DNA of 37,915 nt from a virus (taxonomy: Duplodnaviria > Heunggongvirae > Uroviricota > Caudoviricetes): positions 1 to 37,915 of the IMG/VR virus record IMGVR_UViG_2778261269_000005; one strand, written 5' to 3'. Below, one piece after another: positions 2,983 to 28,064 of the stretch. Under the pieces are notes generated by a model that was not told the DNA's origin, made no database searches, and saw only the letters and a list, made by a program, of their open reading frames with translations. Positions within the stretch are counted from its first letter, which is position 1; every line of letters begins with the position of its first letter. The position numbers were made by a program, and so were the translations under genes.

Positions 2983-3315
2983 TCATACCACGACCTGTTC
3001 AAAATTTGCGGTTACCGTGACCCACAGCGCCCCCACACTGGACGACCATTTACGGCAGACCACCCGGACAGGTGTCCAGCCATAAGGCGGTGTCCACTGA
3101 AACGCCCTGACCCCACCGTGCCGGGCCAGAAACGCTTCCAGCGCCTGATGCTCCCCTTTACGGACACGGATCGTGACACTGTACGTTGGCAACAGAGGAT
3201 TCAGTCCCGCCGGACGACGCTGTTCATAACCATCACCCAGTTTAACTGTCACCACTTTGGGCTCTGAATCCACCTTCATATCCGGACGGACTTTCCAGCT
3301 AAATATCTCCATCAC
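2983..3315 (-). CDS. M: tail tip protein M
   Basis: 110-aa ORF, lambda M-like; ATGA overlap with the H stop. Confidence 0.85.
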   Translation of the reverse strand: MMEIFSWKVRPDMKVDSEPKVVTVKLGDGYEQRRPAGLNPLLPTYSVTIRVRKGEHQALEAFLARHGGVRAFQWTPPYGWTPVRVVCRKWSSSVGALWVTVTANFEQVVV

Positions 3316-20206: not shown

Positions 20207-21253
20207 TTAAAAATCTTTCGTGATTTCTCTGACCGTCTGATTAAAACGTTCCTCTTCCAGTTCCACGCCAATCGCCCTGCGTCCCAGCGACAGTGCCGCT
20301 TTTATTGTCGACCCCGACCCCATAAAAAAATCTGCGACCAAATCGCCTGGACGGCTGCTGGCAGTAATTATCTGACGCAACATATCCGCCGGTTTTTCAC
20401 AGGGATGTTTACCCGGATAATACTGCACGGGCTTGTGCGTCCAGACATCCGTATACGGAACGGCAGCCGATACGGAAAAATAACGCCGCAGGGATTTGTA
20501 CTCATCCAGCAGGCTGGCATATTGCCGGTTCAGTTCGCTGTATGTGCTGACCAGCTGGTGGGGTGGCTGCTCCAGTTCACCGCGCTGGTGTTTTTCTGCC
20601 GCAACACGCGCAAACAACGCCTGCAGTTTACTGTAATCGGCCTCATTCGGTAACTGCCACTGACTGGTACCAAACCAGTGCGAAGCCATGTTTTTCTTTC
20701 CGGTGGCTTCAGCTATCTGTTTTGACGTTATCCCCAGTAATTCACGCGCATCACGGAAGTAAGAAATCAGCGGAGCCATCACGTGCTGTTTAAGCTCGCG
20801 CCCCTTTGCTGCATAGCCGTCATTTTTTGGCTGGTATGGCCCCTGATAATGTTCAGCAAACAGAATGCGCTCTGTTGCCGGGAAATATGCCCGTAAACTT
20901 TCCTTATTGCACCCGTTCCAGCGTCCGGACGGCTTCGCCCAGATAATGTGGTTCAACACATTAAAACGTTCACGCATCATGAGTTCGATATCTGATGCCA
21001 GTCGATGGCCACAGAACAGGTAAAGACTTCCGGCAGGCTTCAGTACCCGCCAGAACTGTGCAAGACACTGGTCCAGCCATTTCAGGTAATCATCGTCCCC
21101 CTTCCACTGGTTATCCCAGCCCTCGGGCTTCACTTTAAAGTATGGCGGGTCTGTGACTATCAAATCGACAGAGTTTTCCGGTAAGGTCAGGATAAATTCC
21201 AGGCAATCAGCGTTGACTAACTCACAGCTGGATATTTTTACAGTATTAGCCAT
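20207..21253 (-). CDS. DNA methyltransferase, beta-class N6-adenine/N4-cytosine (DPPY) family
   Basis: 348-aa ORF; N-terminal LIVTDPPYF (motif IV) and C-terminal DFFMGSGST (motif I). Confidence 0.85.
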   Translation of the reverse strand: MANTVKISSCELVNADCLEFILTLPENSVDLIVTDPPYFKVKPEGWDNQWKGDDDYLKWLDQCLAQFWRVLKPAGSLYLFCGHRLASDIELMMRERFNVLNHIIWAKPSGRWNGCNKESLRAYFPATERILFAEHYQGPYQPKNDGYAAKGRELKQHVMAPLISYFRDARELLGITSKQIAEATGKKNMASHWFGTSQWQLPNEADYSKLQALFARVAAEKHQRGELEQPPHQLVSTYSELNRQYASLLDEYKSLRRYFSVSAAVPYTDVWTHKPVQYYPGKHPCEKPADMLRQIITASSRPGDLVADFFMGSGSTIKAALSLGRRAIGVELEEERFNQTVREITKDF

Positions 21254-22742: not shown

Positions 22743-23414
22743 CTATGAAAATGCCGCCTTTTGTTTTGAACGTGTTCCCTCCACCAACAATAAAGCTTCA
22801 CCATCCAGCCGATGAAAAATGTGTTTCATTGCAACCCAGTGACCAGTAAATGTCTTGGACCAGTTTTTGGTTGTTACTCCCACCAGTAACGCCAGTTCCT
22901 GGTATTCGTAACCTTCCCCACCAAAAAGCTCAGCTTTTACCGCCTGCGCCGCCAACCAGATCAACGTCTTCAGGCGCACCAGAGTTTTTCCTGCAATTTT
23001 TCTGGTACCGGATTGAGCATTAAATTCAGTCCACGCCCACTGCGTTATCGCGATCTGATGCTCCCAGCAAATGCTACCGCTGTAACACCACAGCAGCCAG
23101 GCTTTATGATGTTCTTCAAGAGACAGAACGGCGCGTCGCCATGATGATGTCGAAAACTCAACCGGACTGACCAGGGCAATTGATGAACCTTTCGCCAGCG
23201 ATTGCTTTCCCGGGATCGGTGGATTATCCAGCGTTACTATTTTTCCAGTGACCTTATCGCGGTACCGGATTTTTTTACGTCTGTAACGCCCTGTATTGAA
23301 CATGGCATTCTCCTGCCAGGCTTCAAGCTGACCTTTTGTTGCTCCACTCAAATCAGCGGTGGCGATCATGAGCTGCTCACGCACAAACTGTAAATACTGG
23401 TTATTCATGCGCAC
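22743..23414 (-). CDS. putative late-gene antiterminator (Q-like, QuuQ/YdfT-type)
   Basis: 223-aa ORF between rusA and the pR'-like promoter/terminator; synteny with quuQ-ydfU of Qin. Family not verified. Confidence 0.45.
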   Translation of the reverse strand: MRMNNQYLQFVREQLMIATADLSGATKGQLEAWQENAMFNTGRYRRKKIRYRDKVTGKIVTLDNPPIPGKQSLAKGSSIALVSPVEFSTSSWRRAVLSLEEHHKAWLLWCYSGSICWEHQIAITQWAWTEFNAQSGTRKIAGKTLVRLKTLIWLAAQAVKAELFGGEGYEYQELALLVGVTTKNWSKTFTGHWVAMKHIFHRLDGEALLLVEGTRSKQKAAFS

Positions 23415-24827: not shown

Positions 24828-25154
24828 TTACCTCCAGATGCGTTGCTGGAATGTGCGGGACGGACGCGGTGGGCGTTCGGAATAAGGGAGTCTGACGTAG
24901 ATTATCCAGTGACGATAATCGAGGCTGAGGGCTTTCCTAAACTCATACCCACGTCTGCGGTAGTTCTGTATCAGCCATTCGGCCTGTTCTTCAGTGCAGG
25001 GGGCATGCTGATACCAGTCATATTTGAATGTGTGAGAACGCCGCCCTTGCCTGCTGGCAGGGGCGGTATCAGAATTGTGATGTTTGGTATTGTGCGCCAT
25101 CGGTTTTCTCTGCTGGCGCAGCAGGTGCCAGTTGTTCAAGCTGGCGTGCGGCAA
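24828..25154 (-). CDS. hypothetical basic protein
   Basis: 108-aa ORF (possibly starting at an internal Met); occupies the rem-equivalent position of Qin. Confidence 0.35.
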   Translation of the reverse strand: MPHASLNNWHLLRQQRKPMAHNTKHHNSDTAPASRQGRRSHTFKYDWYQHAPCTEEQAEWLIQNYRRRGYEFRKALSLDYRHWIIYVRLPYSERPPRPSRTFQQRIWR

Positions 25155-25169
25155 TATTGTCTCTGATTT

Positions 25170-25185
25170 CTGTTGTCGTCAACAG
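25170..25185. promoter_or_regulatory. palindromic operator-like site in the parDE promoter
   Basis: CTGTTG-TCGT-CAACAG palindrome overlapping a TTGTCG ... TATCAT promoter-like pair upstream of parD. Confidence 0.4.
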
Positions 25186-25235
25186 GCAACGTGCTATCAT
25201 CAAATGGTGTTCTATCCTACTCCGTGAGGTTTACC

Positions 25236-25493
25236 ATGCGTACAACCCAACAATTCAGCATTACATTAACTAACGAAATGGCTGACATGGTGCGCGCCCG
25301 TGTGGCTTCCGGTGCCTATGCTTCAGAAAGCGAGGTCATTCGTGAAGGGCTTCGCGCACTGAATGAGCGCGATAAAGCAATCGAAGCGTGGTTAACGCAT
25401 TCAGCCGCCCCCTCTCTTGATTCTATCCGCGAAAACCCAAACAACGGACGCTCCATTTCACAGGTTCGCGCCGCGATTCGATCCGGGAAGTAA
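25236..25493 (+). CDS. parD: type II antitoxin, ParD family (RHH)
   Basis: Start set at ATG 25236 (GAGG RBS): MRTTQQFSITLTNEMADMVRARVASGAYASESEVIREGLRAL... Confidence 0.8.
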   Translation: MRTTQQFSITLTNEMADMVRARVASGAYASESEVIREGLRALNERDKAIEAWLTHSAAPSLDSIRENPNNGRSISQVRAAIRSGK

Positions 25494-25498
25494 TCTGC

Positions 25499-25798
25499 AT
25501 GACATATGAAGTCATCATTACTCCTGAGGCCGAACAACAAATAATCAACCTGCACAGGTATATAACGGAGAAAGCAGGGAACGTCATTGCTGACAATTAT
25601 GCCAATGCGCTTCTTGATTATCTTGATGGGTTTTCTACATTCCCGCATCGGGGCAATAAACGCGATGATATTCGCCAGGGGATGCGGGTAACTCATTTCC
25701 GCCACAGAACGATTATTGCTTTTGCCGTTGATAGCAGAAAAGTCTTTATTGTCGGTATCTATCATGGTGGGCAAAGTTATGAAACCGATTTCTTATAA
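25499..25798 (+). CDS. parE: type II toxin, ParE/RelE family
   Basis: 99-aa ORF 5 nt after parD; ...RQGMRVTHFRHRTIIAFAVDSRKVFIVGIYHGGQ is ParE-like. Confidence 0.8.
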   Translation: MTYEVIITPEAEQQIINLHRYITEKAGNVIADNYANALLDYLDGFSTFPHRGNKRDDIRQGMRVTHFRHRTIIAFAVDSRKVFIVGIYHGGQSYETDFL

Positions 25799-25880
25799 AC
25801 TTTTACCCACATCATTCCGGTGTTAGAATAAACCGTCCGCCCCCTCTCTTACTGGCGGATTCGTAGGCTATATAAATCAA

Positions 25881-25916
25881 AGATCCCGGCTCATGTTTGT
25901 GTCGGGATCTTTTTTC
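25881..25916 (+). terminator. intrinsic terminator after parDE
   Basis: GATCCCG-N14-CGGGATC hairpin followed by TTTTTT. Confidence 0.55.
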
Positions 25917-26002
25917 GGCGATTTATCCCCAGCGGCAAATCGAATACACCACCAGCGCCACCGCCATCGCAATTCTTACCGTGGTGAATGCTTCAGGCCA
26001 GG

Positions 26003-26518
26003 TCATCGCAAAACATCCTCCGCGCTTATCAGTTCGTTCCGCTTCAGGTAGTCCATCGCCTTCTCCGGTAATTTGCAGTCCGGCTTAGCTTTTTCCAGTT
26101 GGCTGGCCAGTCGTTTAACCCACATTGTTAATTCGCCAACCTGATTACTGGATGCTAGTGGATTGTCGGCTTTACCCAGAATGACAGCACAGCAGGCCTC
26201 TTTGAGTACCCAATCAACAGCATCTTTCCATGCTCCTGTTTCGACTGGTGGATTCTCACGCTTTACCTGTTCATAAAAGCGCACGGCTTTAACCAGTCCT
26301 TCTGATGTCACAGGGACTGGCGGGGTAGTGAATAAGGCCTGAATCTCATAGCCCGGCCTGTCGTTGCACCCCTCTTTTGTCGGTACATATTTCCAGTCAC
26401 CAACCCACATCTTCTCCTGAAAGTCCGTAACGCCTTTTTTCACGTAGCGATATCGCCATGCAACTGGTTTTGCCTGCCCTGCCGTTTCATGCCCTTCCTG
26501 ATAATTAATCTCGCTCAT
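26003..26518 (-). CDS. hypothetical protein (nin-region-like)
   Basis: 171-aa ORF, translationally coupled (ATGA overlaps) to ORFs on both sides. Confidence 0.5.
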   Translation of the reverse strand: MSEINYQEGHETAGQAKPVAWRYRYVKKGVTDFQEKMWVGDWKYVPTKEGCNDRPGYEIQALFTTPPVPVTSEGLVKAVRFYEQVKRENPPVETGAWKDAVDWVLKEACCAVILGKADNPLASSNQVGELTMWVKRLASQLEKAKPDCKLPEKAMDYLKRNELISAEDVLR

Positions 26519-26691
26519 TCATCGCCCCACTCATCACAATATGCTTCGACCGGTGTTTTTCCTGCTTCATAATCATCACGCCATGCATCGGCATCAGCAG
26601 CACTTCCACCACGTAACTCTGCATAGTCCATTAACAGTTCATGCCATTCTTTAAAACTGACGTTGTATTTAGTTGAACCAAAATCAGCCAT
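26515..26691 (-). CDS. hypothetical small acidic protein (58 aa)
   Basis: Hand-translated MADFGSTKYNVSFKEWHELLMDYAELRGGSAADADAWRDDYEAGKTPVEAYCDEWGDE; stop overlaps the start of the 171-aa ORF; below the ORF-track length cutoff. Confidence 0.4.
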   Translation of the reverse strand: MADFGSTKYNVSFKEWHELLMDYAELRGGSAADADAWRDDYEAGKTPVEAYCDEWGDE

Positions 26692-26866
26692 TTTGTTCTT
26701 CCTCTTCGTCTTTTATTTCGTGATATGAGTAATTGCAGTAGTTAAAGAAAATTTCTTTTGCTTCGTCATGAATTTCATCAGGTGTTGCGTCATCGTCCAC
26801 TTCGAATACATCCTCAAAATCTCCACCAGCTATTCCAGTTTCAATAATTACTTTGAACTTTCGCAT
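26684..26866 (-). CDS. hypothetical small acidic protein (60 aa)
   Basis: ORF-track ORF; its stop overlaps the start of the 58-aa ORF. Confidence 0.4.
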   Translation of the reverse strand: MRKFKVIIETGIAGGDFEDVFEVDDDATPDEIHDEAKEIFFNYCNYSYHEIKDEEEEQNG

Positions 26867-27058
26867 TTCACTACTGCCCTTTCGGGTGGCCTCCTGCTGT
26901 TCTGAGGGTGCAGAAATCCCTCCGGTAAAGGATTAAATTTTTAACCGTGCTAAATTTAATTATTCAGTTCTGGATTTTGTCACCCTGCGTATCCGCGCTT
27001 TCGCGTTACGCTCAATCTGAATTAACTTTTCTATATTTTTCCGTCTTTCCTGTTCCTC

Positions 27059-27644: not shown

Positions 27645-28064
27645 CTATATTCCCCAATAGAACGTTAGTATACGCTGCATAACTTCGCTTTCCCGGCACT
27701 CACGGCAAATCATGTTCTGACGCCTGTCGTAACGACGTATTTCTCCATCAGGTAATGACCAGATAAGGTCCGGATCAACCGCAGATGGTTTCTTCAGCTT
27801 TGCCCTTGAGAGCTTTTTACGGGCATTTTGCCAATCCTTACGCGCCTGTTCAGACGGGAATAACCCGTAACCAGAGTTGTATACATCGCCACTGGCAACC
27901 AGCTCTCTGGCCAGAACGCTCATCAGATATCTTGTTGCCCCAGTTTTAGCTTCCAGTTGTCGTAACGTCTCGCGTCCACTCTGGCGTACGAGTTCAACAA
28001 CCAGCCCTTTAATTTTTTCCCGCTCTTCCTGTGTAAATACTTTTGCCATAAGCGCCTCCGGCAA
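27645..28064 (-). CDS. hypothetical protein (replication/nin region)
   Basis: 139-aa ORF; ATGA-type junction with the upstream gene. Confidence 0.4.
   Translation of the reverse strand: MPEALMAKVFTQEEREKIKGLVVELVRQSGRETLRQLEAKTGATRYLMSVLARELVASGDVYNSGYGLFPSEQARKDWQNARKKLSRAKLKKPSAVDPDLIWSLPDGEIRRYDRRQNMICRECRESEVMQRILTFYWGI

Follow-up and report, generated by a model that had tools for sequence, protein, structure and literature searches.

A 27-codon open reading frame (ORF) at the end of a chain of overlapping early genes in the window (the whole stretch of tailed-phage DNA that we analyzed, 37,915 nucleotides) is probably a genuine gene, whose product would belong to a so far uncharacterized family of 27-residue single-pass membrane microproteins of enterobacterial temperate phages. 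Its reading frame is under purifying selection across a large set of related loci. The ORF together with its own Shine-Dalgarno (SD) sequence forms a discrete module of 84 nt plus the SD, which moves between phages by recombination as the closing gene of an early accessory chain, and the slot directly after it is a hypervariable cassette-exchange hot spot for TA and defense cargo. The family is new and uncharacterized, and the kind to which it belongs, phage-encoded small membrane proteins, is already known.

The features of the window that bear on this conclusion are collected in Table 1. Translation of 26006..25923 on the minus strand (codons ATG ACC TGG CCT GAA ... TGG GGA TAA) gives MTWPEAFTTVRIAMAVALVVYSICRWG. 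An earlier sequence-only reading had described this ORF as hydrophobic, coupled by an ATGA overlap to the gene before it, last in a chain of coupled ORFs, and followed by a hairpin. All of these elements are present in the sequence and its translation: the hairpin begins 10 nt past the stop, and the successive overlaps of the chain are 8 nt (26866..26684 with 26691..26515), 4 nt (ATGA; 26691..26515 with 26518..26003), and again ATGA at the small ORF itself. The structure of the SD/start region is not unusual (folding z = 0.37). As a chance background, 71 ORFs of at least 20 aa overlap the 4-kb stretch around the small ORF; judged from the window alone, it would not rise beyond chance, and its significance comes from comparison.

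Table 1. Features of the window around the 27-codon ORF and in its wider neighborhood
Feature	Position	Strand	Remarks
27-codon ORF, stop TAA	25923..26006	-	ATG start; predicted single-pass membrane microprotein
ATGA start/stop overlap of small ORF and 171-aa gene	26003..26006	-	Translational coupling
Shine-Dalgarno GGAGGA	26016..26021	-	9 nt 5' of ATG, within last codons of 171-aa gene
171-aa gene, phrog_660	26003..26518	-	Stop overlapped by small ORF; RefSeq "hypothetical protein" in identical strain
58-aa phrog_519 protein gene	26515..26691	-	Coupled chain member
60-aa DUF7167 gene	26684..26866	-	Coupled chain member
Hairpin, 10-bp stem, 14-nt loop	25879..25912	.	AAAGATCCCG / CGGGATCTTT; then GATTTATAT
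ParD antitoxin / ParE toxin pair, convergent	25236..25798	+	RefSeq annotation of identical strain and window ORFs
Variable slot	25236..25922		One of the slot examples
Antisense frame, 63 aa	25897..26088	+	Overlaps small ORF
Overlapping ORFs of 103 and 96 aa	26960..27629	-	5' of DUF7167; 96-aa ORF with weak zinc-ribbon match
DUF977	27645..28064		Pfam
Q	22743..23414		Pfam
348-aa N6/N4 DNA methylase	20207..21253	-	Downstream of Q

Copies were sought with a 141-nt query around the small ORF, with degenerate DNA patterns, and with tblastn. The 84-nt block was recovered at 3,062 places in 1,610 of 5,426 complete Escherichia coli genomes, with up to 7 per genome. In most of the E. coli matches listed, the alignment covers q3/5 to q88/89; it thus opens at the ATG (with no more than 2 extra nt) and closes at the stop, irrespective of which gene is annotated upstream. 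Homology spans the same ATG-to-stop range in 84 phage records, among them 933W, VT2-Sakai, Min27, and the PA series. The tblastn searches additionally recovered copies with 59 to 67% identity in VT1-Sakai, BP-4795, YYZ-2008, phi467, and Shigella phage POCJ13, as well as 180 plasmids with the small ORF (154 from E. coli, 25 from Salmonella, and 1 from Klebsiella). These plasmids are mostly nonmobilizable, and most among the matches listed are about 90 to 105 kb in size; the one that we inspected is an IncY (P1-like) plasmid with the chain Ea22-like, DUF551, eaa, small ORF. The carriers of the family are accordingly enterobacterial temperate phages, namely, lambdoid prophages, Stx phages, and IncY P1-like phage-plasmids. 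A strict motif search of the GTDB species representatives recovered E. coli, Shigella, and a single Segatella copri MAG contig (JAJXBQ010000377.1); the last is 100% identical to an E. coli phage (ON470583) and was rejected as binning contamination. None of the four K-12 lambdoid cryptic prophages checked (Rac, Qin, DLP12, and e14) has a copy. Most copies are 95 to 99% identical, a degree of nucleotide identity to which recent spread and recombination, as opposed to selection, may have contributed.

The 55 peptide variants share a hydrophobic core between an N-terminal M-[TS]-W-P-[ED]-A and a C-terminal Y-S-I-C-R-W-G. Positions M1, W3, P4, E/D5, A6, G11, A15, A17, Y/F21, S22, I23, C24, R25, W26, and G27 are nearly invariant, with the strongest conservation in the last 9 codons, and positions 7 to 20 vary within V/I/L/M/F/A/T/G. 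On the Kyte-Doolittle scale, the best window of 17 residues scores a median of 2.11 and a minimum of 1.38; in 50 of the 55 variants, its first residue is residue 7. Such a pattern is characteristic of one membrane-spanning helix flanked on each side by an aromatic belt and accompanied by a specific motif at the C terminus; the charges at the two ends are balanced, and therefore the positive-inside rule gives no orientation. The copy in the window has Arg11, a rare variant at a position where 54 of the 55 variants have Gly.

Searches of Pfam, NCBIfam, PHROGs, PADLOC, and the PDB sequences recovered no significant match for the 27-aa peptide. The KdpF model TIGR02115 gave a below-threshold hit (E = 0.16; 12.1 bits against a cutoff of 26.85), and phrog_4612 was rejected as a family assignment, being nonsignificant even for N-extended forms of the peptide (E = 0.0035 to 0.019). 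Despite its breadth, the small ORF is mostly unannotated: RefSeq omits it in E. coli JNEC-KY180, where 1.1 kb is identical to the window, and among the E. coli matches listed, either the upstream gene alone or nothing is annotated under the match. Nonetheless, the exact 27-aa peptide has already been deposited by some submitters, as a "putative prophage protein" (e.g., in E. coli 042) or a "hypothetical protein," and RefSeq holds a 45-aa N-extended call of it. Partial or N-extended public calls in the peptide frame also occur (GGESMTWPE... and METVTLDAATRTAAGGESMSWPE...; clusters P0013, P0035, P0033, and P0034), some of which are labeled "DUF551 domain-containing protein, partial" yet have no DUF551 sequence. 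A fusion of the peptide to a DUF551 gene, suggested by 90%-identity clusters with 121- and 185-aa DUF551 proteins, was rejected, as the sequences show none and the link is made by such partial or N-extended calls. Neither the searchable literature nor the supplements of two ribosome-profiling papers on EHEC contain the peptide strings; the cultures in those two studies were uninduced, a condition in which early prophage genes would be repressed.

We then consider the junctions of the module, counted in the copies fetched from IMG/VR and GenBank. On the upstream side, 213 of 225 copies retain the ATGA overlap, and the gene tails that precede it are of several unrelated types. At least four such tails are found (...GGAGGATRTTTTRCG-ATGA, ...GCAGGAGGTGAATCA-ATGA, ...GAGGAGGGGGATAA-GTGA, and ...GCGGGAGGTGAAGTA-ATGA), and each type provides a GGAGG 5 to 10 nt 5' of the start. 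On the downstream side, the sequences fall into more than 10 unrelated classes that start right at the stop. The largest class (105 of 233 copies) consists of the hok promoter and leader; in 933W, the small ORF ends 154 nt before mokW. Other contents of the slot include ParDE (in the window), RelE/HTH, Fic/Doc with a small upstream gene, KilA-N, ORF6N, an AbiLi-like AAA ATPase (PADLOC, 8e-23), and DUF4222-xis-int, and in BP-4795-type phages another gene directly follows the small ORF. Examples are provided by loci L002, L003, L005, L132, L156, L225, and L273, among others, and in nin-type contexts the far flank of the slot is usually formed by a rem-like 90-aa gene and DUF968. A promoter-like TTGCGG-N16-TAGAAT, read by eye, follows the stop at a distance of about 10 nt in 933W (L005, 2585-2750) and fits the start of the hokW mRNA; read-through from the early operon would there yield 5'-extended hok transcripts.

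In the window, the slot that opens directly past the stop holds ParDE as its cargo, and this bears on the hairpin. The hairpin is stable (-21.6 kcal/mol; z = -3.0 against shuffles) and was omitted by the consensus terminator scan because the loop limit there was 8 nt. Among the copies compared, it is confined to the ParDE downstream class, which rules it out as a part of the conserved module. Six T residues (TTTTTT) come after it when the plus strand is read, which makes it mainly a terminator for the convergent parDE genes. The hairpin that the sequence-only reading attached to the small ORF does exist, but it is a border element of the ParDE cassette, terminator-like and at best bidirectional, and forms context rather than a part of the module.

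The same reading had suggested that short membrane peptides of this kind can be toxins or regulators. The small ORF resembles the type I toxins (Hok/Gef, TisB, ShoB, DinQ, Ldr, Ibs, and Zor) in being carried by a mobile element, often beside hok/sok, and in encoding a peptide that is short and hydrophobic. As a host-killing small membrane toxin (type I-like or Kil/holin-like), it would damage the membrane and so bring about host shut-off, prophage maintenance, or abortive infection. We consider this unlikely, even though the peptide is as short and hydrophobic as Hok, TisB, ShoB, or DinQ, with a one-helix Kyte-Doolittle profile throughout the 55 variants, though its gene adjoins TA cassettes in most contexts and lies directly 5' of the hok promoter in the class of 105 copies described above, and though prophage-borne type I toxins are known (PMC12648545). 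The peptide matches none of the families Hok/Gef, Ldr, TisB, Ibs, ShoB, Zor, and DinQ, nor any other toxin family in Pfam, NCBIfam, PADLOC, or PHROGs, and it has no charged tail at its C terminus such as many type I toxins possess. Type I toxin genes differ, too, in having their own promoter, a structured leader, and an antisense RNA. The small ORF has neither its own promoter (promoter-like matches at it are at chance level) nor a long leader and is instead coupled to an upstream early gene; a search of Rfam with window positions 25000 to 27000 recovered no family and thus no antitoxin RNA. As both flanks are variable and interchangeable, no conserved antisense partner is possible outside the 84 nt, and the neighboring TA cassettes are exchangeable cargo rather than partners. 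The suggestion of a toxin is therefore unsupported in its type I form; a putative regulator-type membrane microprotein is still plausible.

An improbable alternative is that the small ORF acts in cis, as a translated element. Its translation might bring ribosomes to within about 8 to 20 nt of the terminator or moron slot (by anti-polarity or by masking of a hairpin), or the YSICRWG end might stall them as in TnaC/SecM and thereby control read-through towards Q. Such an element would suit an ORF that is always the last gene before the slot, that is most conserved in its last 9 codons, and that is followed in many downstream classes by a hairpin opening 8 to 21 nt past the stop. The likeness to TnaC/SecM extends to the length of about 24 to 27 codons, the conserved C-terminal end, and the terminator-like hairpin shortly after it in several contexts. 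Against this, the downstream sequence is unconserved, with at least 10 unrelated classes and no conserved regulated element among them, and in the most frequent of these classes, that of the hok promoter, no hairpin follows the stop. The BP-4795-type phages, moreover, have a gene in that place, and the stop itself alternates between TAA and TGA. What is conserved in the core is hydrophobicity as a property, and an arrest peptide would leave both this variable hydrophobic core and the M-[TS]-W-P-[ED]-A start unexplained. A variant that ties the microprotein functionally to the slot is likewise a long shot: it might be a membrane factor that counters or tunes Hok-like cargo or a host membrane defense in lytic growth, or its translation might gate read-through across the TA/defense cassette towards Q. 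If this were true, the small ORF would be a conserved "gatekeeper" of a lambdoid defense/TA hot spot, beyond one more accessory gene.

Whether the frame stays intact was assessed on loci retrieved solely via the tail of the upstream gene, which avoids a bias towards the small ORF. An intact ORF of exactly 27 codons was found in 78 of 109 loci with tail A and 101 of 111 with tail B (179 of 220 in total). The sequence-only reading had named conservation of the frame and of its coupling in related prophages as a check, and loss of the frame in homologous regions as a refutation; with these counts and the 213 of 225 copies that keep ATGA, the small ORF clearly came through. Most of the nonintact loci lack the element altogether. 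These include about 20% of the loci with tail A (22 of 109; L173 and 21 others), in which the small ORF is replaced by an unrelated AT-rich sequence, ATGAATATTTAG..., and it is therefore dispensable to its upstream neighbor. Disrupted copies amount to about 5 to 8% and show 1-nt deletions, a change of W3 to stop, or loss of the stop. One 1-nt deletion allele (ATGAC-TGG) recurs, with the resulting frameshift in L006 (2503-2613; ON470583), L137, L147, and L168, and in ON470583 the shifted frame of 36 aa is annotated as a CDS.

Substitution events were counted along a minimum spanning tree of 61 distinct DNA haplotypes encoding 39 peptides. In the frame of the small ORF (sense 0), 81 synonymous and 100 nonsynonymous events give a pN/pS of 0.42 (p = 2e-8), whereas sense frames 1 and 2 give nonsignificant values of 0.95 and 1.39, respectively. 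Antisense frame 1 also gives a low value (0.38; p = 7e-10), as a consequence of the third codon positions that it has in common with the small ORF; the two signals are alike, and therefore pN/pS alone does not assign the strand. The quality of the replacements does so, together with the start (ATG/GTG), the SD, the fixed stop, and the homology boundaries. In the sense frame, single-step replacements have a mean BLOSUM62 score of -0.24 against an expected -0.61 (p = 0.02), and with all 88 haplotypes the mean is 0.01 against -0.60 (p < 2e-4). The stop stays at one fixed codon (TAA in 75 haplotypes and TGA in 13), and two independent 6-nt deletions are both in frame. The small ORF in this way displays what is generally expected of a protein-coding sequence, i.e., frame-specific selection, a conserved start, SD, and stop, and in-frame indels, with only the pN/pS component shared by the antisense frame through its wobble positions. 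The constraint is moderate, not strong, and the middle third of the peptide is variable. These counts supersede an earlier tally of variant types as synonymous or nonsynonymous, which was weak (0.40 against 0.27 expected; p = 0.13 for the middle region) and biased by protein-based anchors.

On this evidence, we regard it as very improbable that the 84 nt are a nonfunctional linker kept by homologous recombination at the edge of the hot spot, with an open frame that is incidental or recently born. The homology boundaries do fall exactly at the edge of the hypervariable slot, most copies are nearly identical and some are disrupted, and the range is narrow, comprising only E. coli and Shigella among the GTDB species representatives under the strict motif. 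However, a linker would need no ATG, no stop at a fixed codon, and no hydrophobic translation. Nor would it be expected to show a frame-specific excess of synonymous and conservative changes, indels that stay in frame, exactly 27 codons across peptides that are only 59 to 67% identical, or an SD maintained within unrelated upstream genes. That the constrained frame is the 63-aa antisense one, which is open in about 95% of the haplotypes and has the low pN/pS given above, is scarcely credible, since a signal there is the expected by-product of third positions held in common with the sense ORF, its replacements are less conservative than random (p = 0.96 to 0.99), and it starts in the variable downstream region and ends in the variable upstream gene with no conserved start, SD, or stop.

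Taking the small ORF to be a membrane microprotein gene, we propose the following course of action. It would be transcribed with the early (pR- or pL-type) operon, and the peptide would be made on induction or infection and not in the repressed lysogen. Translation would occur by coupling or reinitiation with the help of the ORF's own SD, in step with the upstream protein. The peptide would then insert in the inner membrane as one helix (approximately residues 7 to 24), with Trp3/Pro4 and Tyr21/Trp26 at the interfaces, and may act by helix-helix contact or through its YSICRWG end on a membrane protein of the host or phage; it would probably not be a stand-alone killer toxin. The closest analogs for such a mode of action are the small inner-membrane modulators of enterobacteria, KdpF, AcrZ, MgtS, MgrB, and PmrR (PMC12648545). 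The peptide is like them in its size (27 aa, against 29 to 49 aa), its single hydrophobic helix, its interfacial aromatics, its short conserved ends, and the frequency with which such genes are missed by annotation. KdpF is, furthermore, encoded within an operon and translated with its partners, as would be the case for the small ORF. The peptide differs from these modulators in that it has no sequence relationship to them, is borne by phages, and has no fixed neighboring gene for a membrane protein.

The genomic setting was traced by using E. coli JNEC-KY180, which is 100% identical to the window over positions 25800 to 26900, as the reference for annotation. Its prophage carries, in order, YdaS/YdaT-type regulators, replication genes, DUF1627, DUF977, two pseudogenes, DUF7167, the 58-aa gene, the 171-aa gene, the unannotated site of the small ORF, convergent ParD/ParE, a 90-aa gene, DUF968, RusA, and Q. 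The corresponding order in the window is DUF1627, DUF977, ..., small ORF, ParDE, DUF968, RusA, Q. RefSeq gives the two genes 5' of DUF7167 as pseudogenes in JNEC-KY180 (one lacks its N terminus and the other has an internal stop); at this place, the window has the two overlapping ORFs of Table 1. As the small ORF lies between the replication genes and DUF968/RusA/Q, in the pR operon, its position in the window is equivalent to the nin region of lambda. The sequence-only reading called the chain nin-like, a description that holds for position only. Neither the small ORF nor any of the three upstream genes matches a Nin family in Pfam or NCBIfam, and the DUF7167, phrog_519, and phrog_660 genes are of the Ea22/EaA/DUF551 accessory type, which in Stx phages sits together with the small ORF in the pL/exo-xis-int region, i.e., int-proximally. 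With the lambda nin genes (ninA to ninI) and the exo-xis accessory genes (orf60a/61/63/73 and ea22) (PMC10834534), the small ORF shares a delayed-early operon position among small, tightly packed, overlapping accessory genes, in the replication-Q interval in the window and beside Ea22-like and DUF551 genes in Stx phages. In contrast, it has no homology to any named gene of these regions (no Pfam or PHROG match) and is much shorter and hydrophobic.

If translated, the small ORF would be a widespread phage gene, found in roughly 30% of the complete E. coli genomes and in phages that include the reference Stx phages 933W and VT2-Sakai. Its absence from the four K-12 prophages checked would explain why small-protein surveys of K-12 missed the peptide. 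It would also offer a compact and easily mutable target for studying the roles of tiny membrane peptides in the development of temperate phages. As a precise landmark of the hypervariable slot, it is useful for mining TA and defense cargo. A further site of cargo exchange may lie downstream of Q, where the window encodes the 348-aa methylase: the prophage of JNEC-KY180, in other respects nearly identical, carries an "enterotoxin A family protein" and a small upstream gene at roughly this location (L001, 11242-12383), which corresponds to the Stx position in Stx phages.
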